The translations under genes were made by a program, and so were the position numbers. Of a stretch of 64,000 bases of DNA, positions 17,570 to 50,682 are shown in pieces. This DNA is from a virus (Duplodnaviria; Caudoviricetes). How positions within the stretch are numbered: position 1 is the stretch's first letter; each line of letters starts with the position of its first letter. Location: the IMG/VR virus record IMGVR_UViG_2522572160_000003; one strand, given 5' to 3'. The notes beneath the pieces are model-generated. The model was given only the letters and a program-made list of their open reading frames with translations, made no database searches and was not told where the DNA came from.

Positions 17570-18049
17570 CTATTTCTTGGGAGTCTTCTTATCAGTCGCC
17601 TTTTTATTCTTCCTTGCAGCAACCAACTTATCGGCCAAGCCTTTTTCTTTGGCTACCTTGGCGCGATCCGCAGAAAGAGACTTGCAAGATAGAGGCTGAC
17701 GCTTCTTCATACCGTATTTGGCCCGGTACTCATTAGCCGTCATACCATGCTGTTCCAGGTGTTTATTAGTCAGCATTTTGAACTCAGCCCCGCACTCAAG
17801 ACAGACCACAGACTTTTGGCGAATGGACCGTAAAGGAGCCTCCCTCAGTTTTAGCAGTTTCTCAGGAACTTCTTCAGCCGGTTCCGTTTCAACTTCGGGT
17901 GTTTCTCCCGCTTCCTCCATTGCTTTGATGGAGGCCAATGTTTGATATGCCTTGGTTAAGGCCTCTGCCATTTCTTCTGGGGTCATTTTGGCATGGGAAG
18001 CCTGGGCGGTAACCATTTCAGCGGCGAGTTCATAAAGTGATCTGGACAT
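17570..18049 (-). CDS. Ros/MucR family zinc-finger regulator
   Basis: SIRQKSVVCLECGAEFKMLTNKHLEQHGMTANEYRAKYG...PL; AAGGAG RBS. Confidence 0.92.
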   Translation of the reverse strand: MSRSLYELAAEMVTAQASHAKMTPEEMAEALTKAYQTLASIKAMEEAGETPEVETEPAEEVPEKLLKLREAPLRSIRQKSVVCLECGAEFKMLTNKHLEQHGMTANEYRAKYGMKKRQPLSCKSLSADRAKVAKEKGLADKLVAARKNKKATDKKTPKK

Positions 18050-26703: not shown

Positions 26704-29136
26704 CTACAGAACAGCGTCAGACGACTCACAGTTTTGCATTAAAGACTCATCCATAAGCGCAGTCTTGTCAGAAAATGTTTCTTGAGATGCGCGTATTGGT
26801 TCGGGATTAAGCAACGCAGCCTTTAGTTCCGGGCTAAAACTGTTGGTTTCAACAAGTATCTCAATCCATGCAGTGTAATCAGGATTCATGGTGCAACCAT
26901 CTCCAGACATTGATCCGAACATCATTTCCAGGAACATTTCCCCCTTTAGTATATCGTCGTTGACTATTTGTGTATTTTCTGAATCTTTAAATGTTCCAGG
27001 ACTGAACTCTTTTTCAATGAGACCGATATTTCTCATGGATCTCTGAGATCTACGCAGCATGGTTTGAGAAGTCTCTGGGTTGAAATAAACCTCATCCTTT
27101 AAGCCTTTCCACAGCCTTCTAACTTCATAAATATTTTCATTTTTTGCAAACTTTTCGGATGAAAAAGTTAATAGCGCCATAAGGAAGTTGCTTGATGTAG
27201 GGGCAAGTTTAACAGCCTCGCCATGAAGGCTGGACATTGCAATAAACCGGCTGAATTTTTCATTCCAAATATTGCGGTTTGCAAGGGGATCGAGTTCCAG
27301 TAACAACCCTTGCTTATCTACAGATTGGTCAAATTTTTTGACCAAATAGGAGTTCAGGAAAAATGAAAGAATTCCATCATCTTGTGGATAGACTTCTATA
27401 AGGTATTCTCCCGGCAGCAAGTACTCGTGTGGAATATCTGAAAAAACATGCTTCTTAGCTGTATATAATTCATTTAAATTGGAAGCCTTCTTGATGATCT
27501 TTAGATAAACATCGTTCGTAACAAGGCCTTTCAATTCCGACACATCAAATGAGAATGGAACTTTGACAAAAGCCTTCTTCGGTAAACGAATTTTTTCAAC
27601 CCCCCTGCTTCTGATTTGTGCATTAGTCAATTTCAGCCCTTTTATCTCTCCTTCAAAAAAATCATCGTCAAGGGACCATCCATAAACAATTTTCGAGTCG
27701 CCTTCCGTGTAGACCTTGAGCTTGACCTTGCCCTTCTTTTTAGTGGGCCTAAACATTTTGATATCGCCTAAAGAACTATCCACTGGAGCGGCCCGAAAAT
27801 CAAACCCCTGGGCAAGATCGTGCCCAATAAAATCTTGTATAATGACCTCTTTAAACTTCATGCTGGGCGGATAGTTTTCTTTAATGTCCGCCTTGAGTAA
27901 ATCTTCCAACTTTCCCGCCGTCCATTTCATCATACTCCCTACCGAAGTTAACTCCTCCGGGGGGCAAACGTTTTTCATAGCTGGCGTAATAGAGCCCCCC
28001 TGCCTTTGGTCGGCCTTAGAGTATAAGGTAATCTTGGGCTTTGCAAATGGATTGTGTGTGTTGCCTCTGTCTATCCGGGCAAAATAGTCTGCATCATCAA
28101 GGACATTTTCGAGCGAAAGTCCGGACAAAGTATAATACACCTTCGCCTCGATGCGCCTTAAATGCCCAGCTTCAATTTCATCAGGAATGTGTTTCTTAAA
28201 GATTTTAGGCCCAACCCCTTCGTTGGCCAATAGGCGAGTTGAAAAAGCTACTTTGACTTTAAAATCCTTTTTGGTGGAAACAATGCATACTTCTTGTTTT
28301 TTATCTTTAACTTCAAGATTATTACAAAGGCAGTCTATGAGGCCTTCTGTATTTGGAATGGTACCTCCTGATATCCCGGACGCTGGAACTTTAATTGGAA
28401 TCACCTCCAACCGAACTCTATTTCCATATTTGTCTTTCAGGCGAGCCAAACCGTCTTTTACAAGTTGCCTGTTGGTGCTGCAATTTTCAGGGATATCCCA
28501 ATGATTCTTTTTACATTTAGTAACGTGATTTCGACTATATCGTATATCATCAAACAAGCTGTCTTTATTTGAATTGTAGCTTTCTGGCTTTTGGTTCCAG
28601 TCATGGAGATAGAATACAATCTTTCGATCTTCCTTTTCAGTGAGCCATGATTCCAAGCGGGTAAGATAGTTTATTAGATCGTCGTATTCCTTTTCTTCAA
28701 AATAAAAGGGCTTACGATTAACCTGATAATCAGGCTCCATGTCGCTGATAACTAAAATCTTGTCAATTTCATCAAAAATGTTCTTTTCTCTTAAATAATC
28801 TTCCGCCATTTTTAAACTGCCGTCAATCTTGGTGTAATTATCATTAAATGCAAATACTTTTTTTATTGTTTCCATTTTTTTACTTTTTGAACTTTTAATT
28901 ATGGGGAATATATTCCTCTCTACATCACAATCCCCTACAGGGGCGAACCAAGTGGGCCCACTGATGACCGACATAATTGCCAGCAAGTTCTCCTGATAAT
29001 TTTCACTCAATTCGGTCTTAATTGAACCCGAATTATCTAAAAACACTAATGTGTTAGCGCATGCAATCTTTGAGTAGAATATGGCCAGAGCAACGGCATA
29101 CAATATGAAAAGAGTTTTCCTTATTGTTACATACAT
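26704..29136 (-). CDS. Exported vWA (MIDAS) domain protein
   Basis: Signal peptide, then VFLDNSGS (DxSxS), YTKIDGSL (T) and ILVISD (D). Confidence 0.8.
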   Translation of the reverse strand: MYVTIRKTLFILYAVALAIFYSKIACANTLVFLDNSGSIKTELSENYQENLLAIMSVISGPTWFAPVGDCDVERNIFPIIKSSKSKKMETIKKVFAFNDNYTKIDGSLKMAEDYLREKNIFDEIDKILVISDMEPDYQVNRKPFYFEEKEYDDLINYLTRLESWLTEKEDRKIVFYLHDWNQKPESYNSNKDSLFDDIRYSRNHVTKCKKNHWDIPENCSTNRQLVKDGLARLKDKYGNRVRLEVIPIKVPASGISGGTIPNTEGLIDCLCNNLEVKDKKQEVCIVSTKKDFKVKVAFSTRLLANEGVGPKIFKKHIPDEIEAGHLRRIEAKVYYTLSGLSLENVLDDADYFARIDRGNTHNPFAKPKITLYSKADQRQGGSITPAMKNVCPPEELTSVGSMMKWTAGKLEDLLKADIKENYPPSMKFKEVIIQDFIGHDLAQGFDFRAAPVDSSLGDIKMFRPTKKKGKVKLKVYTEGDSKIVYGWSLDDDFFEGEIKGLKLTNAQIRSRGVEKIRLPKKAFVKVPFSFDVSELKGLVTNDVYLKIIKKASNLNELYTAKKHVFSDIPHEYLLPGEYLIEVYPQDDGILSFFLNSYLVKKFDQSVDKQGLLLELDPLANRNIWNEKFSRFIAMSSLHGEAVKLAPTSSNFLMALLTFSSEKFAKNENIYEVRRLWKGLKDEVYFNPETSQTMLRRSQRSMRNIGLIEKEFSPGTFKDSENTQIVNDDILKGEMFLEMMFGSMSGDGCTMNPDYTAWIEILVETNSFSPELKAALLNPEPIRASQETFSDKTALMDESLMQNCESSDAVL

Positions 29137-30932
29137 ATTCCAACCTCTCCTTTTTCTTTAAGGGCCGCATGAATGCATCCCGGCCTATTTATATTATCGC
29201 ACACATAGTACTTGGCATAAATACAACCACTATAGTCATCACCATTACTAAGGTTCCGCTCCATATTGTGATCAGGCTCCACACCTTGTAAAAACTTACC
29301 ATAATAAGGATTCAACAGGGAGGGCTCCTCTTGTTCAGTTGCATTTTCATCAGAAGACAATTTAATGAGTTCGCTTTTTGACAGTTTTTCGTGGAGTAAA
29401 AACCCTTTAAACATAACTCTAAAGCTGTTGCACAGTCTGGTTATAAAACCTATATCATGACTCACCGCCAGAATAGAGGTATTGTATTGGATTGCAAAAT
29501 TATCCAAAACAGTCACCAAAAGGTTTTCATTTTCCTGGTCAAGCCCTCGGGAAATTTCATCCAACAGAAGCAGCTTGGGCTCTTTAGCTGCGGCCGCATC
29601 ATAGATATTCATAAACAACAGGGCTCGTAACAGGGAAAAACGGCGAGCTTGGCCCATTGAAAGAAGCGTCATCTGTTTTTTCCTGAATTCACATAGCTCT
29701 TTGCTACCAGAGAAAAGATTGAGATCGGAACCCAATTCCTCAAACTTTTTATCAAACAAATTTTTGGGAGCTTTTATTCTGCTTTGAATTCTATCCAGAT
29801 TCTTCTTGACCGTTTCATTGGGGGCGAGTGCGCCGGTAGTGTCTTGAAACACCATTTGAATTCTACGACAGCGAGGCAGCATGGGTTGTGTTATGACTGG
29901 CTCCAAGCCGTCTCTGAAAGAAAACTCACTCAAAAGTCTTGATTTATAATCCGATTTACTAAATAAACTTCCGGCGATTCTTAACAATGTGGTTTTGCCA
30001 GACCCTGATTCACCAATCAACCCCAAACGCTGGCCATTTCGTAATTGTAGGTCATCCAGTTCCCAAAGACAGAAATCCTTGTTGCTGTTATAAACTGAGA
30101 AAGAACCATCGACTTTCAATCTATATATCACTGGATTTTGTTTAAATAAGTCACCGTCATCCAGGGTAGGGCAGTTTTTTGAACGGCCGCTTGGAAGGAT
30201 CTCGCAGTCTTTATAGTCTTTTACGGCCTCCTTCTTCACCAGTCGCCCATGATCTATTTTATAATGCCTTAATTTTTTGGATTTTAACCATTCCCATTCC
30301 TTCCATTTATGGGTAACTAAAATCACCGTCCACTCAGGATCGTCAAAAAAATGTTCAATGGCCGTCACGGTAGCCCTGAATGATATACGGTCAATATCGG
30401 TTAATGGCTCGTCAAGAATTAAAATTCTTCGCTTTGATTTCTCGTGGTTGCGCTTGGCAAACATGAGAGATACCCGTTGGCACTCCCCCCCACTACAGTC
30501 TTTTGGCATTCTTGTGGCAATATATTGTTTATTCAGCAATAGTTCTCTATAGTCTTCATCACTACCAGGGCACTGCGCTTCTATTGCCCTATAGGGATGC
30601 AAACTGTTGACAGCGTCCTGAAATACCACCCTGCACGATTTATACATATTAGTTTGATTAATATAATCTTTGTATTGAAGCCAGGGCCCGGAACCTCCTT
30701 GCCGAAATTCTCCATTAACCATACTTGCAGGAGCTATTCCCAGTAAGGTTTTCAGGAAAAAGGATTTGCCTTCACCAGATCCCCCAGTAATCAAAACCTT
30801 GTCGCCTTGGTTAAGCACAAAACCCTTTCCCTTTTTATCGTGCGGATGCTCTTCATCGTTAGTGATGCTCAGCACGAAACCACTTCTTCTGGGAATCATT
30901 TCAAGTAGTCTAATATGTAATATTTCAGTCAT
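29127..30932 (-). CDS. ABC transporter ATP-binding protein, two fused NBDs (OppD/F-DppD/F-like)
   Basis: GGSGEGKS / VFQD / CSGGECQR / ILDEP / VTH and GESGSGKT / VFQD / LSMGQARR / LLDE / VSHD; C-terminal NPYY plus Cys cluster. Confidence 0.9.
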   Translation of the reverse strand: MTEILHIRLLEMIPRRSGFVLSITNDEEHPHDKKGKGFVLNQGDKVLITGGSGEGKSFFLKTLLGIAPASMVNGEFRQGGSGPWLQYKDYINQTNMYKSCRVVFQDAVNSLHPYRAIEAQCPGSDEDYRELLLNKQYIATRMPKDCSGGECQRVSLMFAKRNHEKSKRRILILDEPLTDIDRISFRATVTAIEHFFDDPEWTVILVTHKWKEWEWLKSKKLRHYKIDHGRLVKKEAVKDYKDCEILPSGRSKNCPTLDDGDLFKQNPVIYRLKVDGSFSVYNSNKDFCLWELDDLQLRNGQRLGLIGESGSGKTTLLRIAGSLFSKSDYKSRLLSEFSFRDGLEPVITQPMLPRCRRIQMVFQDTTGALAPNETVKKNLDRIQSRIKAPKNLFDKKFEELGSDLNLFSGSKELCEFRKKQMTLLSMGQARRFSLLRALLFMNIYDAAAAKEPKLLLLDEISRGLDQENENLLVTVLDNFAIQYNTSILAVSHDIGFITRLCNSFRVMFKGFLLHEKLSKSELIKLSSDENATEQEEPSLLNPYYGKFLQGVEPDHNMERNLSNGDDYSGCIYAKYYVCDNINRPGCIHAALKEKGEVGICM

Positions 30933-34690: not shown

Positions 34691-35650
34691 TCAATTATGC
34701 AATACCAGTTTACTTCTCCATAAAATATCTTCTAATTGCTGCAACTCAGGATATCTTTTTTTTAAGTCATCCCGCGGGTAAAAAAACTCCTGTAGCACCA
34801 ACCCAGGATTTCTAAAAGCAGCAAGCCGGGCATATTCCATATAGTAACAGGTGAAAAATTCAGATTTTTTTATCTCGAATGGTCGATTCCGCGGGTTCGC
34901 CAAGTATAAGTTAATTCCCCCAAAAGAATCCTCCGAGGAAAATTGATTATAGAATTCCCTTAAGTAAGGATTCGTAACTTCTGTTAGGGGCCATTCAACA
35001 CTCTTATCACAAACATTCAGGACGTTTGTAATGAAGTAAACCAGAAAATTGTGAATTTCGGCTTCCCTTCCTGTTGCATTAGCATCCAATATTGCAAGTT
35101 CAGAGCAGTATTTTTCATCAACAAGATTTTGAAGTTCGGCAATCGCTGGTTCTAATCGGCGTGGATCCTCCAAATGGAAATTAATTTCGGGGTTGTCATA
35201 TGGCTCTAAATAGTCGCCTTCAGAAGTGCTATCGATTATTGCCCGAGCATTGGCCACGTACAATTCAATCTTCTCTTTATCTTTGATACTTATTGCCTTC
35301 AAGTTGTGAGAACTATGCTCCACGATCTCAGTCTTTTCATTGAGATAGGCTTCAAGAACTTCGGCATGACACCGGACTAACAATTCATAAATAGTTTTTT
35401 TAACAAACAAATCAGTTATTTCCTGTGGAACATCTAATAGTTTAACATCGTCTACAGGATATGCTTTTTTAGAAATGTAAGATTCAGCATTATTCGCTCC
35501 GTGTTTTCCATCAGAGACAGTATTTGTAACTGAAGGACTTTCCTTTAAATTAAGACCTTTCTCAACATTCTGAAAGTGAATGACTATTGCGACAAGCAGT
35601 AGAGTAAACGTCGTAGTTGCAACTGCTATAAACCACGCTCCCCGCTTCAT
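34691..35650 (-). CDS. Membrane-anchored hypothetical protein
   Basis: N-terminal TM; ATGA overlap with the upstream gene. Confidence 0.75.
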   Translation of the reverse strand: MKRGAWFIAVATTTFTLLLVAIVIHFQNVEKGLNLKESPSVTNTVSDGKHGANNAESYISKKAYPVDDVKLLDVPQEITDLFVKKTIYELLVRCHAEVLEAYLNEKTEIVEHSSHNLKAISIKDKEKIELYVANARAIIDSTSEGDYLEPYDNPEINFHLEDPRRLEPAIAELQNLVDEKYCSELAILDANATGREAEIHNFLVYFITNVLNVCDKSVEWPLTEVTNPYLREFYNQFSSEDSFGGINLYLANPRNRPFEIKKSEFFTCYYMEYARLAAFRNPGLVLQEFFYPRDDLKKRYPELQQLEDILWRSKLVLHN

Positions 35651-36963
35651 AATGTTTCCTCCAAAATTTTAAAAATCAGTATATTAGTAGAGGAACTGCT
35701 TGGCCTACCTTGCAACTTCTGCTTGACCGACGCTTGAACTGCCAGAAAATTCTCCCCCTTATAAGAAAATGGATACACCCAAGAAACATGATTAAGCGTT
35801 ATTAATGTCTCCCCATCGCTTTTCGCCCAAACTTGCTGGTATAAAAAATGATCGCTAATCCATTCCGCCCGTTTCTCTAATATTTCCTGGTCATTTCTTC
35901 CCTCAATATCGTCCAAACGGTTTCGAATTTTTTTGTAAGCATTGCAAACACTAAAGCTATTGGGAAATCCAAGCTCGTCTTCACTGCATTTAGGGCCACA
36001 TTTTATCCGAAACACCTTCAAACTGTCGCCCATCTTAGTAAAATATAATTCATCTCCAAGCCAAGCAAATGAATTGGGGTATAGAAAGTAATTATCAGCC
36101 CTGCAGTCATAGACATTTACGCGTGCAACAGTTTGCACGGGTTCTTTAAGATTCACGATATCATAAATGTATAATCCCCAGATATTGTTTTTGTCCACAT
36201 AGGCAACCGCCAAATACTCCCCAGATTGTGAAAATCTCGGGTAAAATATCGGATTTTCACTTTTCAGAACCCTCTGGCTTCCTTTTTCGTGAATACAAAC
36301 GCGGGGAAAGTTGTTTAAATCATGGTATGAAACAGCATACTTTTTCCCATCAGGATGCATGTCAAAATCAAAAAGACCTTCTGAGTTGTCAATTGTTTGT
36401 TTTTTCCCTTTTTGATCATACAAGTAATCATGACTAATAAAAGTAACCTTGTTTTTCGATTTCATCAATGTAACTGGTCTTTCATCTGAATTCATTATAG
36501 GCAAAGAAATCGGACGATTATCTGGAATACTTTTAAATATAAAATTATTGTCAACATCCTCCCAAAATATGGGTCCCCGAGAAAAAGAAACAAGCCTACC
36601 CGGAGAAGGGACTTGATCCAAAAAACTTACCTTCTCTTGATTGATTTTAATCTCAGGGTGAACCATAGCAGGCTCGAGGGCGCAAAAACCTGATTTGTCA
36701 GGCCCCATGACATGGTCTAAGTCATACGCAAAAAGCCTTCCTCCATCTGACGCCAAATCGATAAACATCAAGTAGTCGTCAGCAACAAAAGGGAATTTTA
36801 AACGGCCGCCTTCTGACAGCCAAGAAGGTGGAACGTTCTTTTTTGATACGTAACACCCAGTCTTGTACTCAACCTCAACTCCTATGGCATTGCCAGCGAA
36901 GACTGCTGCCATGAAGAAGACGAATAGCCCCCATTTAGACATTGCGTTGGAACATATCCTCAT
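35647..36963 (-). CDS. Exported TolB-like beta-propeller protein
   Basis: Signal peptide; PD40-like repeats FDMHPDGKKYAV, YPRFSQSGEYLAV and FAWLGDELYF. Confidence 0.75.
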   Translation of the reverse strand: MRICSNAMSKWGLFVFFMAAVFAGNAIGVEVEYKTGCYVSKKNVPPSWLSEGGRLKFPFVADDYLMFIDLASDGGRLFAYDLDHVMGPDKSGFCALEPAMVHPEIKINQEKVSFLDQVPSPGRLVSFSRGPIFWEDVDNNFIFKSIPDNRPISLPIMNSDERPVTLMKSKNKVTFISHDYLYDQKGKKQTIDNSEGLFDFDMHPDGKKYAVSYHDLNNFPRVCIHEKGSQRVLKSENPIFYPRFSQSGEYLAVAYVDKNNIWGLYIYDIVNLKEPVQTVARVNVYDCRADNYFLYPNSFAWLGDELYFTKMGDSLKVFRIKCGPKCSEDELGFPNSFSVCNAYKKIRNRLDDIEGRNDQEILEKRAEWISDHFLYQQVWAKSDGETLITLNHVSWVYPFSYKGENFLAVQASVKQKLQGRPSSSSTNILIFKILEETL

Positions 36964-36964
36964 G

Positions 36965-39900
36965 CTAAAAACCTCTCACAAATTCCACAGAGTTTGAATT
37001 GTTCGATTTTTCCCAATACAAAACCTTTTCTTTTTCACTATTATAAGTAAGAAGTCGAACATCTTTGATGGGAATTCGTTTATCAAAAATCTCGTCTTTG
37101 TATCCGTCGGTCTTAGTAACAATCCAAGATTTCGTTCTGTTGTTATAAAGGAACTTTAGATTTTGTACCTGAACCCTGCCCTTTTGTTCTGTGACTTCAT
37201 GGTTTACAATCAAGATAGATGATAAATTACGGAAATCTTTGTCCAAGGCTTTAATATAAATCTTGACATTTTCTGGAGCCACTGCCACAGCCTCATCAAA
37301 ATAGTTGGTCAAGTCAATTTCTCCTGGAATCGAAGAAATACGCCCCTCTACGTCAAAACGCGTTACAGTTGCTATATATCGGTAGGTCTTAGCTCCATTA
37401 CTAACACGTTGCAATCGCAGGAATCCCATGGCTAACCCTTTTGAATTGAAAAACGTGTCTGAAGACAGAACGGCATCACTGGAACCTTTCGAATGATATA
37501 AAATTTCTTCCTTGCAGCCACTGTTATTGGGCAAATAGGCGATACCCGCCCCTTTAGATAGACAGCACAATGAGTTCCCAAATTTTATGAGATTTACCCC
37601 ACCATCACTTGCGCTCTCATCCTTACTCGTTTGCCAATGCTCGGGTTTCAATAAATGAAGTTTATGGATTTCTTTTGGAGGCGCATCGGTATTCAAAACC
37701 TTTTCCAAAAGGCGAGCGGAACCCTTTGCTGAGAACAAACAGGCTAAATAGGAAGTGTCTGTAAACTCTATGGTTAACGCAACCAAATCTCCTTGCCTGC
37801 CGTCAAAACTAATTAGCTTCCACTCCATCTCCCTATGGGAAAAAGTTAGAACCTCGATAGGACTTATCTGGACTGCAAAATAATCAAGGGTCTCATCTCG
37901 CCCTCCAATGGTCGGCGCAGAATTCAATTTGATTGGAGTACCAACAAATTGCCCGTTGGTTTTGCAGCATGTTTGAAAGTAAAACGGTCCCGACTTCATT
38001 TCATCTTCAGGGCCCATCAGAATGTACATATATGGCGACTGCAATAACGGGCTAAAACAACTTATAATAACATTGCCTTGCATAGGACTGATACTTACTG
38101 TATTGGTAGTGTAACCTGAAAATACTTCATCATTTCCCTCCAATCTTTCAAACTCGCCAGAAAATAAATCGGTTAAATAGTAAATATATGGATTTCCAGC
38201 TTCTACGCACCGCAAGGATCCACCATTATTTTCATTAACTGTCAGCGTGACTGATAAGTCCTGTGTTCGTTCGAGTGCCAGCACCACTCCCTCTTTCTTA
38301 GATAAATCCGTTTTATGTTCAAAAGGTTCTGCGTGAAAACCCATCATTTCCAAAACCTTTTTTGCCAGGTCGGATTCAACGCCAATCAAATGAGGAAGTG
38401 GATGGTTTTGAACCACCAAATCGTTATCGCTCAATACAATTTCAAGGTAGTTCTCAAAATTGGAAATATTTCTCATCTTGTTCCTGTATTTGCTTGTTAC
38501 ATCAGTTTCTGTCAGAAACTTGGCAATCGAAGGCTCCCATCTAACTGGAATCACTTCAATTTCATTCATACCGGCAATGCAATCTATTTGATCTCCTAAA
38601 GAAAAAAGAGTATTGTTATATTTAATTCCAATTTCAACATCGGGAAATATTCCTTCTTTATTCGTCACAGTAAAACTTCGAGGTCTTTTTACCTCTTGAT
38701 TAACAATCAGGGTTAAACACTTGTCTTTATTGAATTTGCTGTCCAGCACTATTCCTTTCTCTTTTTTAGTTTCGTTGCTGTATGCAACTGAACAAATTTT
38801 GAACCCTAAAAGACCAGCCGCTTTTTGCGCATAATTTATGGTTTCTCCCTCAAAATTCGGTCGTATTGAATTTGATTCAATTTTAAGATCATTCGGCTCA
38901 AGATTGATTCGTTCTCCATTTTTGATGACTCCTATGTTTTTCTTAACCGCAGAGTACTTTTGTGTAACTGTATATTCTCGCATTGCACGGGCGACATCGT
39001 CAGTCCAAGCGACGGGTTTGACCTCAATAGATTTTACCTCTTCCACATATGGAATTTCTGCGTCTAAGTCATATGTCCCGCCATTGTATACCACCTTAAT
39101 CTCGACATCTTGCAAAATATATTTTGGCTTGGTGACTGAAAAGTGCTTTGGTTTAGCAACCTCAGGAAGGTCTACCACAAGAGTTGTTTTTCCTTGAGCA
39201 GCGCAAACGAGGGGCTTTATTTTTGCTTCAATATCGCCTTCTATCCCATTCCCGTATTTAATGCCCACATGAAGGTTTCTGCCATTTCTAACGTAATCAT
39301 TAATAAGCTCTACTTTTCCAGATTTTACTGTTTCTCCATTGACTACATTTCCCATATGCACATGGCCGATGCATTGATTTCCGTTCTTATCTGAATACAG
39401 AGAGACCGTGGCCTCCAAGCCGGAATCAATTAACGCGTCCGTCGACCTAATAAAAACAAAAGGAGATTTGTCTATGAATGGAAAATCACTTGGTAGATTG
39501 TTTACGCCTTCAAACATATTCGGGGAAGGGAATCGCTCCTTAACCCTCGCGACAAAATAATGCAAATTCAAAAGGTTGGGCTTGTAAGGTACGATAATAC
39601 CTCTTGCTGCATCCCAAAAACGCTCTTCCTTAGCCTGGCCGTTGGCTGTTGTATAAAGCCCTAAATGACTGCCTTTATTATATTTAATGTAGCCCTCTTC
39701 ATTTCCGGCCCCCATCTCCCCTACGCCATAACACCCATGTGCAATCAATAAAGACTGTGCTCCTCTATCGCGGATAGTCTTATCAATATGGAGGTTCAAC
39801 TCATCAATATTTAAAAGATCAACAAACTCACCGTTTGGAAGCACCTTAACATTACTTGTAAGCATTGCATTTTTTATCGCGTGGGAATGGGTATAAATAA

Positions 39901-40264
39901 AAAGAAAATCCCCTTCCCCCAAAATAGTAATTTTCTCGTCAATCAATCTCTGGATAGTATCATCCTCTAAAAATTTGGATCCATAGAACTTTTCATCTGG
40001 GCAATTAATGCTAAACTCCTGACGTGGAGCGGAGTCTCCATAATAAATAATGGTTTGATCAAAATACTTGTTTATCACATCGTACATGCCCTGGAGGACG
40101 CTATGGGCATGGTCCAGATTATCAATTCCAGCAGCGTTTTTCGCTTCTTTATCAAAAACTTTAGGCGCGCCGAAAAGCATGGCATATCTATTTCCGGCGT
40201 GAACCGTTGAAGTCAAAGCCATTGCCATAAAGATTATAGCAAATATGGCAGCTATTTTTCTCAT
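36965..40264 (-). CDS. Exported multidomain protein: caspase-like (C14) domain, two beta-domain/PASTA repeats, beta-rich C-terminus
   Basis: Signal peptide (VHA-G); RYAMLFG, GDFLFIYTHSHA (His) and LLIAHGC (Cys); PASTA-like PNFEG.....A......GF...KGIVL and PHLIG....AKKVL...GF...EGVVL. Confidence 0.7.
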   Translation of the reverse strand: MRKIAAIFAIIFMAMALTSTVHAGNRYAMLFGAPKVFDKEAKNAAGIDNLDHAHSVLQGMYDVINKYFDQTIIYYGDSAPRQEFSINCPDEKFYGSKFLEDDTIQRLIDEKITILGEGDFLFIYTHSHAIKNAMLTSNVKVLPNGEFVDLLNIDELNLHIDKTIRDRGAQSLLIAHGCYGVGEMGAGNEEGYIKYNKGSHLGLYTTANGQAKEERFWDAARGIIVPYKPNLLNLHYFVARVKERFPSPNMFEGVNNLPSDFPFIDKSPFVFIRSTDALIDSGLEATVSLYSDKNGNQCIGHVHMGNVVNGETVKSGKVELINDYVRNGRNLHVGIKYGNGIEGDIEAKIKPLVCAAQGKTTLVVDLPEVAKPKHFSVTKPKYILQDVEIKVVYNGGTYDLDAEIPYVEEVKSIEVKPVAWTDDVARAMREYTVTQKYSAVKKNIGVIKNGERINLEPNDLKIESNSIRPNFEGETINYAQKAAGLLGFKICSVAYSNETKKEKGIVLDSKFNKDKCLTLIVNQEVKRPRSFTVTNKEGIFPDVEIGIKYNNTLFSLGDQIDCIAGMNEIEVIPVRWEPSIAKFLTETDVTSKYRNKMRNISNFENYLEIVLSDNDLVVQNHPLPHLIGVESDLAKKVLEMMGFHAEPFEHKTDLSKKEGVVLALERTQDLSVTLTVNENNGGSLRCVEAGNPYIYYLTDLFSGEFERLEGNDEVFSGYTTNTVSISPMQGNVIISCFSPLLQSPYMYILMGPEDEMKSGPFYFQTCCKTNGQFVGTPIKLNSAPTIGGRDETLDYFAVQISPIEVLTFSHREMEWKLISFDGRQGDLVALTIEFTDTSYLACLFSAKGSARLLEKVLNTDAPPKEIHKLHLLKPEHWQTSKDESASDGGVNLIKFGNSLCCLSKGAGIAYLPNNSGCKEEILYHSKGSSDAVLSSDTFFNSKGLAMGFLRLQRVSNGAKTYRYIATVTRFDVEGRISSIPGEIDLTNYFDEAVAVAPENVKIYIKALDKDFRNLSSILIVNHEVTEQKGRVQVQNLKFLYNNRTKSWIVTKTDGYKDEIFDKRIPIKDVRLLTYNSEKEKVLYWEKSNNSNSVEFVRGF

Positions 40265-42561: not shown

Positions 42562-43320
42562 CTATGCAGAAAAGCCGTAGTCCTTTTTTAAAATGGTTGC
42601 ATGCCGTAGGATGCGTTGGCAATAAACGTCCGGATCAATGGTTGTAGACCCATCTGTATAGTATATTTTACGCACGACCTTCTGGCCCTTAACGCCCTCC
42701 CTCCCTCTGTAGTAATATTGCAGGGCCATGCACCAGTCTTCATTTACTGATTTATCAAAATGTTGTTTTGGGTAGTCCTTAACTGACAAATCAAATTGCT
42801 TGCTTAGATAGTAGGCTCCTGCCATTATAGCCGTTTCCGGGTTGTTTCGGTTATCCCCAATATCTATGCCCCTTTCTTCTAACTCACATTGGATCTCCGT
42901 AAAAGTGGAATCTATAATTTGAGTCAGACCCTTGGCGGAAGACAATGGTTTTCCATTTTTGCCAATGGGAACGGCCTCAGGCCTACCTGAGGATTCCTGA
43001 TATATCAACCCGGCGATGATAGAAGGGGGGACTTTAAAGGTACGGGCAGCTTGCCAAACTTCTTTTTTGTATGGCACTACTGCTTTGGATATTATTTCCT
43101 TGTATTCTTTGGTGACGTTTTCAATGGGGCCGGTTTCGTTCTTGATGGAGTAATCTCTTTTATAAATCATCTCCCAGACCTCAAGATGTTTGCTGGCCTC
43201 CTTTAAAAGTTTCAATCCCTCTGACGCCGCAGCCATTCCGGAAAATATTATTGCCAGAATAATGAGCCAGCCCACACTATTTCCGAAATGTAAGATAAGT
43301 CGAGTTTTAATTTTACTCAT
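42562..43320 (-). CDS. Lytic transglycosylase (SLT/GH23 domain)
   Basis: IYQESSG (catalytic Glu), SAKGLTQI, NPETAI.AGAYYL, AL.YY; N-terminal signal/TM. Confidence 0.92.
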   Translation of the reverse strand: MSKIKTRLILHFGNSVGWLIILAIIFSGMAAASEGLKLLKEASKHLEVWEMIYKRDYSIKNETGPIENVTKEYKEIISKAVVPYKKEVWQAARTFKVPPSIIAGLIYQESSGRPEAVPIGKNGKPLSSAKGLTQIIDSTFTEIQCELEERGIDIGDNRNNPETAIMAGAYYLSKQFDLSVKDYPKQHFDKSVNEDWCMALQYYYRGREGVKGQKVVRKIYYTDGSTTIDPDVYCQRILRHATILKKDYGFSA

Positions 43321-43335
43321 TTCATATCCTGTTTC

Positions 43336-43788
43336 TCACTTACTTTCCACAAATTGAACAGATACTCCGCATCTGTTTAATCTCCCAGTCAAATCCACGG
43401 CGTCCACTCCTGATATGGATTCGTCAGTAATGAGCACAAAAGCGGTAACATCCTCCTCTTTTACGCTGTCCGCATCATTAAGGGCTTTTCGCAGCCCGGA
43501 GAGATCTGAATCATTCAGCCAAAAATGATCACCGTGAAATAATAATTCCACCTTTCCGCTACGTTTTACCGTTTTTACCACTAAAGATTTATCAACAACC
43601 TTATTCGGATCAAGTATAGCGTTGGCTTCAACAGGGATGGCCGGCACCCCGCCGCCCCCGGGATGGATAGTCATTAAGGCAAATGAAAAAAGCAGCATAA
43701 CCATGAATAAATAGGCGAACAGGTCCTTGCCGGGATCCTGCAGCGCCAAAAAAGGATCTTCCCGCCTGCAGCCGAATCGCCTACCCAT
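43336..43788 (-). CDS. ExbD/TolR-like protein
   Basis: Single TM starting with the conserved Asp (KDLFAYLFMVMLLFSF); C-terminal VLITDE.....AV.....L...G.SVQF; directly follows the ExbB-like gene. Confidence 0.75.
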   Translation of the reverse strand: MGRRFGCRREDPFLALQDPGKDLFAYLFMVMLLFSFALMTIHPGGGGVPAIPVEANAILDPNKVVDKSLVVKTVKRSGKVELLFHGDHFWLNDSDLSGLRKALNDADSVKEEDVTAFVLITDESISGVDAVDLTGRLNRCGVSVQFVESK

Positions 43789-44377
43789 TATTTTTCTCCT
43801 CAAAAGCGGGATCTGGGTTTGCATCCGCTTCCATAAGGCATTTTAATAGGGAAGAGATTCTATGATTAATTTTTTTTTCAAATGCTTTGAGCCTTGGTTG
43901 TGTCCTTACAGCAAGAAAAAAGATAATAACGGCGCCTATAGCTGAGCTTAATAGTGACGTCAATAGAGCCGTGTTCAACCCCCCCTCAAAAGCCTGCGAA
44001 ATAGCTTGCGTCGCTACCACATTCTGAGTGCTCAACGCCTTAGTCATCTCCTGAAACGCAAAAATGGTTCCATAGATCGTCCCAAAAAAACCCAAAAGAA
44101 TGGCTGAATTGACTACGCCGCCAATGCTGGCGACCTGGCTTGATATTTCAGTCTCATATTCCAACCACACCTGGTCAACGCAAGAATCCACCCATGATTG
44201 ATGATAGTTTACGCCTGGCTCAATGGGCAATAAGTCATCGATCCATGTCATGTCTTCTCTGGCTCTCAATTCGCCCCACACCTTGATTATTTTATATAAG
44301 ATTGCTATTGCCAAGCATACAAAAAGCAATACGAAAACCAGATCAAGGCTTTTGTATAGTTCAGACGGCGTCATCAC
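43781..44377 (-). CDS. MotA/TolQ/ExbB proton channel family protein
   Basis: Three TMs; AILLGFFGTIYGTIFAF and GGLNTALLTSLL signatures. Confidence 0.88.
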   Translation of the reverse strand: MMTPSELYKSLDLVFVLLFVCLAIAILYKIIKVWGELRAREDMTWIDDLLPIEPGVNYHQSWVDSCVDQVWLEYETEISSQVASIGGVVNSAILLGFFGTIYGTIFAFQEMTKALSTQNVVATQAISQAFEGGLNTALLTSLLSSAIGAVIIFFLAVRTQPRLKAFEKKINHRISSLLKCLMEADANPDPAFEEKNNG

Positions 44378-44551
44378 TTTCTACTTTCATTGTCTGTTGG
44401 ACTAAGAGCGCTCTCAAAAAATCAATATGCACTTTAAGGACAATGCGTTGAGTTTGAATCCCAACCCCAAAGGGATATTCACTCTCGTATTAAAGGCACC
44501 GATTTAAGGCGAGCTTTCTGAAAATAAAACTCTTGGTTCTGTTTTTGAAAC

Positions 44552-45256
44552 TTAAAGTCTGTTTACTATTTCGGGGTCAATGATTGTTTTATCCACTTGA
44601 GTGGGCGCATAACTGAGCCAAGCAAAAACCTGATCAATTCTGGAAACCATTTCATCAGGTACTAAGCCCATTTTTTCATTCTTTCTGTAGAGTTTCACTG
44701 CATCACTGCTTAAAAAGTCTAACTTTTCCTTGACAAACGAAGTACTGCCTGTAAAAGAGTCCACTTTAAACGATGGCGGATACTTGATGTTTTCTCTGAT
44801 TCTGTCGATTAACAAATCCACGCGCCCTATCCTGTCCTCCCATTTGCCGGCAGTTGAGTTGCTCAGTTCTTCAAATTCATCCTCTACGATTTGCTGGTCA
44901 GACGTCAACAACAGTTGAGCTTCCTCAGCAGTCATTTCATTGGCGACCAGTTCTTTTTCATATTTGCGCTTTACCAGCATTTTCTCAACCGCAAGTTGCT
45001 TTCTAAGCGTTGCTTCATAATCCTTGTAAACAATGGACTTATTGGCATGATAAACGGCTTCTTTGCAATCATTAAAGATGGAATCCTGCACAAGAAGGCT
45101 AATAATTTCTTTGTTGCTGATTTTGCTTGATTCTTCGTCAATCTCACGTTTAAGTTCCTTATTGCTTTCCTCATAGGATCCTGCAGAAGATTCCCCCACT
45201 TGAAAAGCCACTGCTAAAACCAATAACACACAAAAAACTATTCTATAATGGCGCAT
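44552..45256 (-). CDS. Exported helical/coiled-coil hypothetical protein
   Basis: Signal peptide MRHYRIVFCVLLVLAVAFQVGESSA; AAGGGAG RBS (ORF track start 45283). Confidence 0.75.
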   Translation of the reverse strand: MRHYRIVFCVLLVLAVAFQVGESSAGSYEESNKELKREIDEESSKISNKEIISLLVQDSIFNDCKEAVYHANKSIVYKDYEATLRKQLAVEKMLVKRKYEKELVANEMTAEEAQLLLTSDQQIVEDEFEELSNSTAGKWEDRIGRVDLLIDRIRENIKYPPSFKVDSFTGSTSFVKEKLDFLSSDAVKLYRKNEKMGLVPDEMVSRIDQVFAWLSYAPTQVDKTIIDPEIVNRL

Positions 45257-45315
45257 AATTATCTCCCTTACAAGATTACTCATCTAAGATGCCATTGTTA
45301 TTGCCAAAAAGCCCT

Positions 45316-46326
45316 CTAATCCAAAGTTAACCCTTTGTAGCGGGCCAATCTTTCATCGTTGCTTTCTCCAACATTGATGTTGGGCATTCCGCTTGGATTG
45401 TTTTTGTACTTTTCATCTAGTATACGTAAAGATTCCAAGCCTTCGTCTCTCATTAGCTTGTTCACATTATCCATTGCGGCTCCTGTTTTATCCATAGCTA
45501 AACTGAGATTCCTAAAAGCTATTATGCCTTCACGGAAAGACTTTGAGGCTATAATCATATCATCGCTGAAAGCCCCTGTATTCACCTGAGAAAACTTACG
45601 AAATAAGCGAATAAAATGACTATGGAACTTATCAGCGGCAGGGAGAAAACTATTTTTCATCAACAAGGCATTATCCTTCATTACCTTGTTGAATTGTTCA
45701 AGAAACTCGTTCTCCACTTTCATACTTTCATAGCTGACAATAATATTTTCAATTCTATCAAACTTTCTATCTATCGTATTTTGTAGCCTCGCCTTGCAGG
45801 AATCATTCCTACATCCTTTTTGTTCGTTAATAAGCCGTTTAATTTCTTTTTCTAAGGCTTCCTTGCCGCGAACCAGTTCACGACGCCTCTGTGGGATTTC
45901 GGCGTTCATTCCCCGCTCGGAAATGGCTTCAATCTCATCCACCCCTCTAATTACCATTTCTTTCAAGCTATTGACATTTTCAGTGGTGGATGAGGCATTC
46001 TTTGCCAAAGGGGAGTTCAACTTCACCACCGCAAGTCTAATTTTTAATGTGAGATTTTTACTCAAATCTTCAGGAACCTGGCCGTTGTAGCGGGATTCTG
46101 CCTCTTCCCATTCATTAATTATCTTGTCAATTTCAGTTTTGAATTCAACCATAGCCTTGGCAACTCCGTCTAACCCACTAACTGCATCCCCAGTAGCGTC
46201 TGTTATCCCCTTGATAGTTGTCACGGCTTGGTGAATGGATTCTTCCGTGGTGACTGCATGGCAAACAGGCGAAAACACCACTCCCATGAGCAGGATTGCC
46301 AAAAGAACTTTCCGTATTACTAACAT
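45316..46326 (-). CDS. Exported coiled-coil hypothetical protein
   Basis: Signal peptide (VCHA); heptad-rich helices; AAGGAGG RBS. Confidence 0.78.
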   Translation of the reverse strand: MLVIRKVLLAILLMGVVFSPVCHAVTTEESIHQAVTTIKGITDATGDAVSGLDGVAKAMVEFKTEIDKIINEWEEAESRYNGQVPEDLSKNLTLKIRLAVVKLNSPLAKNASSTTENVNSLKEMVIRGVDEIEAISERGMNAEIPQRRRELVRGKEALEKEIKRLINEQKGCRNDSCKARLQNTIDRKFDRIENIIVSYESMKVENEFLEQFNKVMKDNALLMKNSFLPAADKFHSHFIRLFRKFSQVNTGAFSDDMIIASKSFREGIIAFRNLSLAMDKTGAAMDNVNKLMRDEGLESLRILDEKYKNNPSGMPNINVGESNDERLARYKGLTLD

Positions 46327-46367
46327 GCCTTCCTCCTTGATTAGTGGAAATATGGGCCTTTTACTAT

Positions 46368-46874
46368 TTATTGCTGCACATAACCAGGATCAACCTTTTT
46401 CAACAGGCGTTTAGAGCAAAGCTCAACTTTTTTAGCCCGTCCGTCCATAGTTGAAAGGCTCCAGTCATAGATCGCGCGAAGAAACTCTTGGTCAGCCGCC
46501 CTCAGTTTCAATCTACCACCGGCTTGAGAATCTTCAATATTTGAAAAATATTGACATGAGGCCGCTACAAAATTCTCCATTTGGCTTTCCTTGTTAAAAG
46601 CCTTGATCGCTTCCACAAGCACGTCGTTGTCAACCCTCCGGTTGGCGTCAAGAATCTTGACAATCATAGCCATTCTGGCATCCGCATACCTGGAGTTGTC
46701 TTTAGTTTCGCGGAAAAACCTGTCAATTTCGGAATTTGACAACTCTGATACCGGCATAGTTTGCATTTGATCTACCGTCAAAGGGGCCGCCGATGGTTGG
46801 GGAGATTTTTCAACACACCCCGCCAATGATAAAGCCATAAGAACTGCTGCAATAATTGTCATCTTTCTCCTCAT
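46368..46874 (-). CDS. Lipoprotein
   Basis: Canonical lipobox LAGC after a basic/hydrophobic signal. Confidence 0.85.
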   Translation of the reverse strand: MRRKMTIIAAVLMALSLAGCVEKSPQPSAAPLTVDQMQTMPVSELSNSEIDRFFRETKDNSRYADARMAMIVKILDANRRVDNDVLVEAIKAFNKESQMENFVAASCQYFSNIEDSQAGGRLKLRAADQEFLRAIYDWSLSTMDGRAKKVELCSKRLLKKVDPGYVQQ

Positions 46875-46930
46875 AGTATCTCCCCTTTCTGACCTTCTAC
46901 ATTGGGTGCTATAGTAAAAACGCCTATTAA

Positions 46931-48073
46931 CTATTTAACCTGTACTATGCCCTTTTCTATGAAAAACGCTGCATCAGGATCCTGATTTATTAAGTCGCCG
47001 GGCAACAATTTCCAACCCTGTCCATCATCATAATACAACGGTATGATAAACGCTTGGCCCCTGGAGTCCACACCTGCATTTGAAGTCAAACGCCCGGCCG
47101 CCATTCTTACGGATAACATGCAATTAGGGGAATTCCTTTGGGACGTATGCCACTTTCGTACTGCATTTAATTTATTAAAAAAATAGCCGCAGTATTGTTT
47201 AGGAACAACGTAGTAGACGCGCTCAATTTTGCTTGAGCCAACTTCCTTGGAATACTTTTTTCGCCAAGCACGTAGTTCCTCTTCATGGTCATCCACGCAA
47301 GCCTCAATTTTAATCGGATACACAGCATCCAACTCGTCATCTTGAACCCAATCAAAATCACGAAAAGAACTCTTTATAAAAATACCGCCGTTGCTTGAAA
47401 TCAGCGCCAACTTCATATTCAAATAGGGATAAAGAGTTTTTAACATGTATCCTCTCGAATTTTTTATCTCCCAGGAAACATTCCCATCCCCGTCCCAGGA
47501 GGCGCTGTTAAGATCGTTGTGCAAAGAAAAAAAATCGTTTTCTATGCTCTCCGAGGTTTCAACTCCCTGTACGGATGTGAGCGTTTCAAAAGCAGACGTC
47601 TTTTCCTCCTCCTTTTGATTTTCTTGCTCCTGCACTTCTTCTTTCTGGGGATCTGGCTTCATTTCGGGCTTAGCGTCATCACTGTCAGCATGTTCGTCAG
47701 CTGATTCCCCTGCAGTCTGAGTTTCCTCTTCCTGCGGGCTTTCATCCTTCTCAATTCGTTTATCCGATTCCACCCCCAACGTGGTGGTTTCATCCATTGC
47801 ACCATCCGGCTTTTCACTCAGTTGTTCTGCACCGACATCTTTCGTATCTTTGGCCGCATTGGAATTATGATCTGTAGGTGTATTTGGAGAAGAGGGGGTT
47901 GGAGGCGTCGAACCGGGAAAAGGCTTTCCTGTCTCAACATATCCTGAAGAATCATCTGATTTTCCCCCGCCAACCAGGGGTGCGGCCATCTGCCATAAAA
48001 AGAGAATTATAGCCAAAATGACAACCGCAATCAGCAGGTAATTCAATTCCTTTCTCAACTTGTCCCTTTGCAT
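46931..48073 (-). CDS. Membrane-anchored protein with Pro/acidic disordered linker and C-terminal globular domain (TonB/TolA-like architecture)
   Basis: N-terminal TM, PFPGSTPPTPSSPNTP, ~130 aa E/D/K-rich linker, then a folded domain; first gene of the operon. Confidence 0.7.
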   Translation of the reverse strand: MQRDKLRKELNYLLIAVVILAIILFLWQMAAPLVGGGKSDDSSGYVETGKPFPGSTPPTPSSPNTPTDHNSNAAKDTKDVGAEQLSEKPDGAMDETTTLGVESDKRIEKDESPQEEETQTAGESADEHADSDDAKPEMKPDPQKEEVQEQENQKEEEKTSAFETLTSVQGVETSESIENDFFSLHNDLNSASWDGDGNVSWEIKNSRGYMLKTLYPYLNMKLALISSNGGIFIKSSFRDFDWVQDDELDAVYPIKIEACVDDHEEELRAWRKKYSKEVGSSKIERVYYVVPKQYCGYFFNKLNAVRKWHTSQRNSPNCMLSVRMAAGRLTSNAGVDSRGQAFIIPLYYDDGQGWKLLPGDLINQDPDAAFFIEKGIVQVK

Positions 48074-48494
48074 TGACGCACCCTTCCGAAAAAAGTCACA
48101 AGATTCAGTTTCTCACAAAATGACATGATAAGTTTAAGGTGTGCACCTTGCATTAAAAGGATAAAGACCGCATTGCACATATACTTCACTGCTCCCAAAC
48201 TGATTTGCAGAAATGAATCAAAAGGCCGGGGCCTATATGAAGATATTATCTTGTATTAGAGCGTCATACTAATTACCCTAACAAACAAAAGTCAAGTCAA
48301 TTTTTAGATGTTTTTTTTATTGCTTTAGGGCAAAGAATTCGTCTTTGCCATTTTCGTTATCCCAAGCCTTCGGGAAAATGTGCGGATTAGGATTCTACGT
48401 GATTTTTGATTGTTTAATGGATTATTTGGCCACTCACAACAATTTTTTAATTTGCATAAAATACAGATATTAGTTTGAAAGTTATTAGAATGAT

Positions 48495-48824
48495 TTAAAG
48501 GACAATGCCAGAGGAGTACCTTTTGGGCAGGGCCAAGGGAGTAGCTGTCTCTGCTTGCGCAGAGGTCCCTTTTTCACCAAAATTGAAATCAGCGCTGACA
48601 ATATGAAGAAGCGGTCCGTTCTGGTAGTCCTTCGACATCAAAACTAATTCATTTCCAACAGAATGAATCTCCTTAATATTTAGCCGTTCTCTATTGGGAT
48701 CGATTATTCTTTTTAGCAGCGCATCATATGAACCCAAGAGATTATCCCCTTGTTCCAGTTGGCAAATCTCCCCCCCAGTTCGAGCCTTGTAAAAATAACT
48801 TCCACACGCCGCCACAGCAAAGTC
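48495..48824 (-). pseudogene. 5'-truncated paralog of the 53868-54989 gene
   Basis: DFAVAACGSYFYKA...GDNLL...IKEIHSVGNELVLM...IVSADF...LPKRYSSGIVL aligns with DMAVSPCGKYFYEA...EDNFL...VKKIFPIADMIVVL...LISAKF...LENKYKSMIVL; in-frame stop just upstream. Confidence 0.65.
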
Positions 48825-49123
48825 TCAACAAATGTGTCCCTAAAACACGGACTTTTCAATTATCAATTCTATGAACGAATACATACACCTATAGATATTA
48901 AATGTCAATGAATAGAACTATGTTGGGTGCGCCGACGCTTAGCTCTATATGCTATAATTCCAAGAAGGTAAGACTCAAGCAAGCTCAAATTCCGGCACAC
49001 TAACCCCAGAGAAGAAGTGAAAAAGTTTGCGTATTTTGCATGTAGAGGCACGTACCTCAAAAAACTGGACAGGAAATTAAGGCTGACACTATATTAATCG
49101 AAAGGGAATATATTGTACAGGAT

Positions 49124-49809: not shown

Positions 49810-50682
49810 ATGTTCAAAATTTTTAAAAGGTTAACTGCAATTTCGATCGTTTTCTTCCTTGTCCTGTTCATTTATGCTTCCATAGGTATTTCGGGCCAGG
49901 ATGAGCTTCCCACCGGTCAGACGTTGAGCGAAGTTAAAACCCGGGTGTTGTCTACGCTGGAAAATGAGATGGAGAATGCAGGGTTTCGCTGGGGCGCACC
50001 CGTATTTTTACGCATATTTAAGGATGTTAAGTTTCCAGGAGGATACAGGGCATATGGTCGAAGAAATAAGTCATACGGAGAAAACGGAGTATTGGAAGTT
50101 TGGGTGCAACGCAATGACCAATTCTGCCTTTTCAGGTCATATGCGGTTTGCTATTTCTCCGGAAGCCCGGGGCCCAAGACAGAGCAGGGGGACTACCAAA
50201 GCCCGAAGGGGTTTTATTTTGTCACTCCGCAGCGGATGAACCCATACAGCTCTTATCATTTAGCCTTTAACTTGGGCTATCCAAATGTTTATGATCGCGC
50301 GCACGAGAGAACCGGAAGTGCTTTAATGGTCCACGGGAATTGCTGCTCAGTCGGTTGCTATGCCATGACAGACCCTAAAATTGAAGAAATATATTTGTTG
50401 GTTGAGGCTGCTCTTAGCGCAGGGCAGCCTTTCGTTCGCGTTCATATTTTTCCTTTTCCAATGACAGACGAAAACATGGAGGCGGCCGAAGGCTCACAAT
50501 GGATTGATTTCTGGAAGAACCTGAAAGAAGGATATGACTTTTTCGAGAATAATAAAGTTCCCCCAAACGTGGAAGTGAGCAACAGGCGATATATTTTTAA
50601 AGTGGAAGAAGTCGCCCCAGCTGCTTTTCCGGTGGCAGGGTCGCCTTCACCTCAAGCTCATCCTGGTGATGCTTTGGACTGA
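49810..50682 (+). CDS. YkuD/L,D-transpeptidase family, YafK/DpaA(LdtF)-like
   Basis: PVFLRIFK, SG.PGPK..QGD.QSP.GFY, YHLAFNLGYPN.YD, MVHGNCCSVGCYAMTD and FWKNLKEGYD motifs. Confidence 0.9.
   Translation: MFKIFKRLTAISIVFFLVLFIYASIGISGQDELPTGQTLSEVKTRVLSTLENEMENAGFRWGAPVFLRIFKDVKFPGGYRAYGRRNKSYGENGVLEVWVQRNDQFCLFRSYAVCYFSGSPGPKTEQGDYQSPKGFYFVTPQRMNPYSSYHLAFNLGYPNVYDRAHERTGSALMVHGNCCSVGCYAMTDPKIEEIYLLVEAALSAGQPFVRVHIFPFPMTDENMEAAEGSQWIDFWKNLKEGYDFFENNKVPPNVEVSNRRYIFKVEEVAPAAFPVAGSPSPQAHPGDALD

Follow-up and report, generated by a model that had tools for sequence, protein, structure and literature searches.

The window analysed here is a stretch of 64,000 nucleotides (nt; IMG/VR virus record IMGVR_UViG_2522572160_000003) that forms the first 64 kb of contig C9 in a genome of 6.47 Mb and 54.4% GC. 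At 42562-48073 it contains seven intact, tightly packed open reading frames (ORFs), all on the minus strand and named g01 to g07, which encode a motor pair of the ExbB/ExbD type together with envelope partners; an earlier note, made from the sequence alone, described the set as an orphan ExbBD/TolQR motor next to a lytic transglycosylase and a protein shaped like TonB or TolA. From the upstream end, g01 (46931-48073) encodes a 380 amino acid (aa) protein with a predicted N-in transmembrane (TM) anchor, a disordered linker and a C-terminal domain; g02 (46368-46874) encodes a 168 aa lipoprotein; g03 (45316-46326) and g04 (44552-45283) encode exported proteins of 336 and 243 aa, the former helix-rich; g05 (43781-44377) encodes a 198 aa protein with three TM helices; g06 (43336-43788, with a longer start at 43824) encodes an ExbD/TolR-like protein of 150-162 aa with one TM helix and shares 8 nt with the end of g05; and g07 (42562-43320) encodes a 252 aa exported lytic transglycosylase of the SLT family. 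Only g05 and g07 match Pfam families. A scan for sigma-70 promoters and terminators gave results at chance level only. Gene sets of the same kind recur in Thermodesulfobacteriota, where the counterparts are referred to as the lipoprotein, ccA, ccB, TMbig, ExbB-like, ExbD-like and SLT proteins.

The motor pair and its partners

g05 is a member of the MotA/ExbB/TolQ superfamily; it matches PF01618 (MotA_ExbB) at 25.1 bits (E 1.6e-05) against a gathering cut-off of 22.9, and the same family is matched by 22 of the 24 members of its clade, with a best E of 2.7e-08. The channel motifs of g05 are GFFGT..G in TM2 and NTALLTSL in TM3, and these align to the G-x-G-T (TM2) and A-L-x-x-T (TM3) columns of the TolQ, ExbB and MotA proteins of the same genome, which bears out the G..GT and TAL.T motifs that the earlier note had read in the protein. 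Residues G96, F97, G99, T100, G103 and S141 are invariant across the 24 sequences of the clade. Between TM1 and TM2, the cytoplasmic stretch has approximately half the length seen in the canonical proteins, and the loop between TM2 and TM3 is ~8-10 residues longer than theirs; the ExbB equivalog TIGR02797 scores 22.6 bits on g05 against a cut-off of 206.2, the TolQ equivalog TIGR02796 scores 19.7 bits against a cut-off of 221, and a PDB profile search with the ExbB-like family returned nothing significant. Translation of g05 probably begins at the second codon of the ORF, an ATG at 44374; P0002, a relative with 71% identity, begins at MTP, i.e. at the longer start. The public gene call for g05 (P0001, 156 aa) begins 42 codons too late and lacks TM1; the N-terminal TM helix is present in P0002 and in every clade member.

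The ExbB-like family is very rare. A word-index search of 5.8 billion proteins returned g05 itself and one relative at 71% identity, and a HMMER scan of 1.84 billion representative proteins found only 27 at E <= 0.001, with canonical ExbB, TolQ and MotA staying outside this threshold. When the clade profile was run on 400 sampled genomes of the phylum, four of them scored 186-200 bits and the best of the others reached 46; across the phylum, the fall is from 186-212 bits to 46. A tree was built from 45 clade members and 36 canonical ExbB, TolQ and MotA proteins of the phylum, with ZorA, AglR and GldL left out and with groups defined by the same searches that had found them; in it, a branch of 4.3 substitutions per site (SH-aLRT 100) divides the g05 clade from the canonical proteins. 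The earlier note had proposed a phylogeny as a check; with respect to ExbB, TolQ and MotA, the A subunit of the pair splits off. Within the tree, P0002 and P0005 form a group with g05 that lies outside the main clade. Sequence comparison supports the view that the g05/g06 pair makes up a branch of its own in the MotA/ExbB-ExbD superfamily, and a very rare one.

g06, the putative B subunit, has no sequence match in Pfam, NCBIfam or PDB, and for PDB this holds even when the family profile is used; PF02472 does not match, and hhalign against canonical ExbD gives 2.6%. The segment DPGKDLFAYLF, in which the Asp opens the TM helix, is invariant in 18/18 aligned relatives, which agrees with the earlier description of g06 as an ExbD-like protein that keeps the membrane Asp. 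In P0010, the ExbB-like and ExbD-like proteins lie in one continuous reading frame. An AlphaFold2 (AF2) model of g06, with the alignment of relatives as input, has a predicted local distance difference test score (pLDDT) of 68.5, with values over 80 in some stretches of the periplasmic domain, and features a TM helix, a linker and a domain of the order beta-beta-beta-alpha-beta-alpha-beta. A VIA search of 48,161 chains, which is independent of Foldseek, places E. coli ExbD (2pfu) at rank 1 (Z 7.1, rmsd 3.0, 73 residues), E. coli TolR (5by4) at rank 2 (Z 6.6) and H. influenzae TolR (2jwk) at rank 4 (Z 5.7); with Foldseek, the sole high-probability match of the model is ExbD 8vgc (probability 0.99, target TM-score 0.74). 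Because three of the top four structures are ExbD or TolR and the gene lies beside a MotA/ExbB protein, a chance match is unlikely, and g06 is assigned to the ExbD/TolR type. In the model, the periplasmic domain is of the ExbD/TolR type and not of the OmpA-like type found in MotB or ZorB.

g01 has the shape of TonB or TolA. The AF2 model displays a helix at residues 3-30 and, after a stretch at 35-171 where pLDDT stays below 50, an alpha/beta domain spanning 174-373; the linker is thus ~140 aa, acidic and Pro-rich, and predicted to be disordered, and the C-terminal domain of ~200 aa is twice the size of TonB_C. This layout fits the earlier account of the first operon gene as a TM protein with a Pro/acidic linker and a globular domain that lacks the S-x3-H motif of TonB and TolA. 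The same plan is found in TMbig, the TM-anchored protein of the related loci: both have a short basic N-terminus, a TM helix, a low-complexity linker rich in Pro/Lys/Glu or acidic residues, and a conserved C-terminal domain of ~200 aa. The Pro/Lys/Glu-rich linker of TMbig varies widely in length (~100-300 aa), and the juxtamembrane stretch is kept as D-G-R-L-K-T-G-R among TMbig relatives. Relatives of the g01 C-terminal domain were absent from the word search of 5.8 billion proteins, and the ESM Atlas offered no usable lead for the TMbig C-terminal domain or for ccA. By analogy with TonB and TolA, g01 is a candidate force transducer; the earlier note had gone from these features to a new branch of proton motors with a non-canonical transducer, of which the rare, separate branch holds and the transducer part stays an analogy.

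The lipobox of g02, LAGC, can be read straight from the sequence, and Pfam finds no OmpA-like domain in the lipoprotein. Signal peptides are likewise legible on g03 and g04. Both had been described as exported coiled coils; export agrees with the signal peptides, and the coiled-coil part suits g03, which shows a strong 3.5-residue periodicity (z 4.1); g04 has no such strong periodicity (z 0.6). g07 matches PF01464 at 49.2 bits against a cut-off of 21.3 and retains the catalytic Glu-Ser motif as QESSG, so that a lytic transglycosylase does lie next to the motor pair as had been stated; its top NCBIfam matches are transglycosylases of flagellar assembly (BB0259) and of type III secretion system assembly (IagB).

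A conserved module in Thermodesulfobacteriota

Across 185,579 species genomes, a scan by pattern identified 24 other loci in which the motor is kept in synteny with a linker-bearing TM protein, a lipoprotein, two exported proteins and an SLT protein, in keeping with the operon that the earlier note had proposed. All of these loci lie in metagenome-assembled genomes of Thermodesulfobacteriota, with carriers that include Ca. Tharpella aukensis, Desulfobacteraceae, Desulfococcus, Desulfobacula and Desulfatiglandales; within one family (f95), the module is present in 11/20 genomes. The order is uniform wherever the locus is long enough: lipoprotein (~175 aa), ccA (~357 aa), ccB (~237 aa), TMbig (356-529 aa), ExbB-like, ExbD-like and SLT, with ccA and ccB exported and, in some relatives, a further TM protein after the SLT gene as an optional eighth gene. 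The module is a self-contained unit of 7-8 genes flanked by housekeeping genes. Its lipoprotein, ccA, ccB and TMbig have no relative in Pfam, NCBIfam or PDB, and PDB profile searches with the TMbig, ccA, ccB and ExbD-like families returned nothing significant. The module is conserved as an operon over several orders of sediment sulfate reducers, and this operon is undescribed.

The related modules are often flanked divergently by three genes, which encode a FliA/WhiG-like sigma factor (97 bits, under the subfamily cut-off), a Cys-rich protein of 190 aa and a TM protein with a Lon-protease-like domain; the last (L063:2929-4167 and L029:5226-6581) matches PF05362 at 27.3 bits, and this domain is followed by a TM helix and an extracytoplasmic part. 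These three may form a signalling set of sigma factor, anti-sigma factor and protease. A promoter-like motif, TTGAAAA-N11-12-CTTCGATAA, precedes the lipoprotein gene by 34-128 nt in ~14/18 related loci and is found beside the divergent sigma gene (e.g. L029:7952-8211). The -10 part of this motif, CGATAA, resembles the sigma-28 consensus. The dedicated sigma factor suggests that the module of the relatives is expressed conditionally. Caspase-domain (Peptidase_C14) proteins lie beside the module in four loci, at L068:5016-6530 (93.5 bits), L067:3908-5494, L066:5911-8148 and L061:4661-5953.

The window copy was compared with this module by hmmsearch and hhalign, with ranks given by running the module profiles against all 20,825 ORFs of the window's genome. 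g02 matches the lipoprotein profile (38.8 bits; hhalign 98.3%; rank #1, E 5e-16), g05 the ExbB-like profile (70.9 bits), g06 the ExbD-like profile (29.4 bits; rank #1) and g07 the SLT profile of the module (106.8 bits); g04 aligns to ccB over 222 columns (hhalign 91.8%, E 7.5e-07; rank #1), and the two have a C-terminal I-I-D-x-x-I motif in common. The TMbig profile finds g01 as its sole match among the window ORFs (E 0.0034); hhalign gives an E of 0.0086 over 173 columns that reach the last residues, and MAFFT produces the same colinear alignment. Six of the seven window genes therefore appear homologous to the module by sequence, five clearly and g01 weakly but consistently; g01 is a probable homologue of TMbig. 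g03 has a size similar to that of ccA and occupies its place. The gene that follows the operon, g08, gives no signal for the optional eighth gene (rank 2481).

The window copy differs from the conserved module in its order, as the TM-anchored gene stands first in the window copy and fourth in the relatives. A non-coding gap of 174 nt at 44378-44551, between g04 and g05, falls in the exact place that the TM-anchored gene has in the relatives, and may be a scar of gene rearrangement. Identity between the window copy and the main clade is 30-38% for the best-conserved gene. No locus related to the window subtype was found in genome, metagenome and viral contigs; a search of metagenomes based on P0012 gave no related locus, and tblastn against plasmids gave no match. 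The genus and family to which the window's genome belongs yielded no orthologue.

The island, the host genome and the neighbouring genes

The initial ~55 kb of the window has ~40% GC and, because the genome that contains it has 54.4% GC, is called a foreign island. Neither Rfam families nor tRNAs were found in the window, and no repeats were found in the 1 kb upstream of the module. The same genome encodes a TolQ-TolR-TolA-TolB-Pal set on C7, two Ton-type ExbB-ExbB-ExbD sets on C30 and C42, and MotAB on C11 adjoining a hook gene, the host being flagellated. Because these canonical Tol, Ton and Mot sets sit elsewhere in the genome, the motor pair of the window is considered an extra motor and not a replacement; the pair had been called an orphan, and it is indeed no copy of the canonical sets.

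Twelve co-oriented genes, g08 to g19, run from 41900 down to 20778 and continue the minus-strand run that begins at 48073, with a gap of 140 nt after g08. A fused ABC ATPase at 29127-30932 is the only one of their products with a significant Pfam match. The final two genes of the run, at 20778-23102 and 23193-26567, are paralogous (24% identity over 577 aa, E 1.6e-31). g11 (35647-36963) was considered as the TolB-like propeller that the earlier note had placed downstream, and this candidate falls away since no PD40/TolB Pfam match was obtained and hhalign against the genome's own TolB gives 2%. g10 (1099 aa, 36965-40264) was considered as a caspase and likewise rejected, with no Pfam match and no similarity to the caspase proteins beside the related modules.

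Upstream of the operon, past a gene-poor gap of ~1 kb at 48074-49123, a YkuD-type L,D-transpeptidase-like gene at 49810-50682 (24.4 bits, just above cut-off) is divergent from the seven-gene module and is a second peptidoglycan-related gene beside it. The low-GC island also contains a block of five radical-SAM genes, a PD-(D/E)XK gene and a UvrD gene. A Ros/MucR-family regulator is encoded at 17570-18049 within the island (115 bits); proteins of this family bind AT-rich DNA, and the regulator could silence or regulate the island. At the contig end (2050-5529 and 417-2078), a 1159 aa protein that joins a superfamily-1 helicase (AAA_11/AAA_12) to an endonuclease domain of the MTES_1575/DUF559 type adjoins a 553 aa coiled-coil protein; this pair is defence-like or mobile-element-like content.

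Interpretation and alternatives

Few uses of 5:2 ion-driven motors are known, namely flagella, Ton, Tol, gliding and type IX secretion, and Zorya. The module resembles Ton in its plan: the A subunit has three TM helices with G-x-G-T (TM2) and A-L-x-x-T/S (TM3) channel motifs, the B subunit has a single TM helix, a membrane Asp and a predicted ExbD-type periplasmic domain, and a third protein of the same operon has a TM helix at its N-terminus and a globular domain at its C-terminus, with a long Pro-rich linker between them. It differs from Ton in that the motor proteins score far under the family cut-offs, with no PF02472 match, a shorter cytoplasmic domain and a longer TM2-TM3 loop; in that the third protein lacks S-x3-H, gives no Pfam match to TonB_C and carries a domain of ~200 aa whose poor model matches no fold; and in that no TonB-dependent receptor is present, whereas an SLT protein, a lipoprotein and two exported proteins are added. 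Like Tol-Pal (TolQ-TolR-TolA-TolB-Pal-CpoB), the module unites in one operon a motor, a TM-anchored periplasm-spanning protein, an outer-membrane lipoprotein and an exported helical protein, and the modelled periplasmic fold of its B subunit matches TolR with Z of 6.6 and 5.7; however, its lipoprotein has no OmpA-like domain, a TolB propeller is absent, the module has its own SLT and, in the relatives, its own sigma factor, and the canonical Tol-Pal is encoded on C7. Zorya ZorAB, flagellar MotAB and the gliding systems AglRQS and GldLM belong to the same superfamily of ion-driven motors and have an Asp-bearing B subunit, whereas the module has no ZorA tail, no four-TM MotA plan, no OmpA-like or GldM-like B domain, and no effector or motility genes.

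The seven window genes are best read, with a probability of about 0.55, as a very divergent copy of the conserved seven-gene envelope module that was gained by horizontal transfer and has been rearranged, with a motor core of the ExbB/ExbD type coupled, by analogy, to g01. In the mechanism that this reading would entail, g05 and g06, presumably in a 5:2 arrangement, would draw on the proton gradient and so pull or turn g01, the TM-anchored protein; the flexible linker of g01 would allow its C-terminal domain to extend through the periplasm as far as g02, the lipoprotein, and the exported g03 and g04; g07 would open the peptidoglycan so that the assembly can span the wall. The output that seems most likely is a remodelling of the outer membrane or of the wall under a specific condition.

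Several observations weigh against this account. g03 has no detectable homology to ccA (hhalign 0.8%, rank #514), and the link of g01 to TMbig is weak, as g01 ranks #2 genome-wide with an E of 0.27. The TM helix of g01 has no Ser or His, hence no S-x3-H, and there is no conserved TM His; Pfam gives nothing for g01 at E <= 1, including any TonB_C or TolA signal; and its model, for which TMbig rows served as the alignment, is of poor quality, with a pLDDT of 52.6, and found no matching fold (Z 4.0 at best). For g06, a Z of ~7 for the fold match is middling. The window copy lacks the sigma factor along with its two partners, and also the promoter motif, which was sought in the 600 nt upstream of g01; an outer-membrane beta-barrel partner is absent from the module.

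The minus-strand run can also be read as one larger machine of the island, powered by the motor module and acting with the twelve downstream genes in, for example, secretion, uptake or surface assembly. The genes lie on one strand in tight packing from 48073 to 20778 and within the same low-GC island, the downstream products include large exported and permease-like proteins and the ABC ATPase at 29127-30932, and caspase-domain proteins accompany the module in four related loci; however, none of g08 to g19 has a counterpart beside the module in the 24 related loci, which also leaves a link of the module to downstream genes unsupported, the relatives' module is self-contained among housekeeping flanks, the 140-nt gap follows g08, and the ABC ATPase stands alone in its Pfam match, so that a joint machine is unlikely. 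A role as accessory to the flagellar motor, for instance as a scaffold in the periplasm or as an alternative stator, with expression from a sigma-28-type promoter, is distinctly unlikely for the module. The FliA/WhiG-like sigma beside the relatives' module, the sigma-28-like CGATAA element, the flagellar assembly transglycosylase as best NCBIfam match of the SLT and the flagellated host would suit such a role, but the A subunit has three TM helices and a short cytoplasmic domain and is not a four-TM MotA with a torque interface, the B subunit has a predicted ExbD/TolR and not an OmpA-like fold, and the module never adjoins flagellar genes. Co-occurrence with FliG in family f95 is also loose (8 genomes with both, 3 with the module only, 4 with FliG only and 5 with neither), in a comparison of related and in several cases incomplete genomes, one module-only genome being 94% complete.

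It is very unlikely that the window copy merely decays or lies silent as a passenger on the island, with no current function: a dedicated sigma factor and the conserved promoter motif are missing and the copy is very divergent, yet its seven ORFs are intact, every invariant residue of the motor families is kept, and a relative 71% identical to g05 exists elsewhere. The most improbable of the alternatives is a Zorya-like anti-phage defence, in which a MotAB-type motor would sense envelope perturbation. PADLOC gives weak ZorA matches to the TM region of g05 (19.6 bits) and to the helical g03 (18.4 bits), and the helicase-nuclease, PD-(D/E)XK and UvrD genes share the island; the reading is rejected on the grounds that g05, at 198 aa, has no long ZorA tail, that g06 has the predicted ExbD/TolR fold and no peptidoglycan-binding OmpA-like domain, and that the module includes no nuclease or helicase effector. 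The relatives' module, moreover, lies among housekeeping genes with its own sigma factor, and collections of phage contigs and plasmids gave no match. A phage origin of the module was also considered and set aside, the SLT being the only protein with PHROGs matches.

As a tentative proposal held at clearly less than even odds, the module might be a third proton-driven trans-envelope force-transduction system beside Ton and Tol. Its motor clade would be its own, the C-terminal domain of its transducer would have a new fold, its periplasmic and lipoprotein partners would be new, and an enzyme that cuts the wall would be built in. According to recent surveys of 5:2 motors and of force transducers in the periplasm, further ones await discovery (PMC12204202; PMC12505986); the words "transglycosylase" and "Desulfobacter" are absent from the text of both. 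The motor clade and its four partner families with no Pfam, NCBIfam or PDB relatives provide a small, defined gene set for the study of how motors of this kind become coupled to new outputs. To this the window adds that the module is mobile and that a copy survives with another gene order and without the regulator; should the proposal of a third system be true, the module would be able to move between lineages on an island and to work without a dedicated sigma factor.

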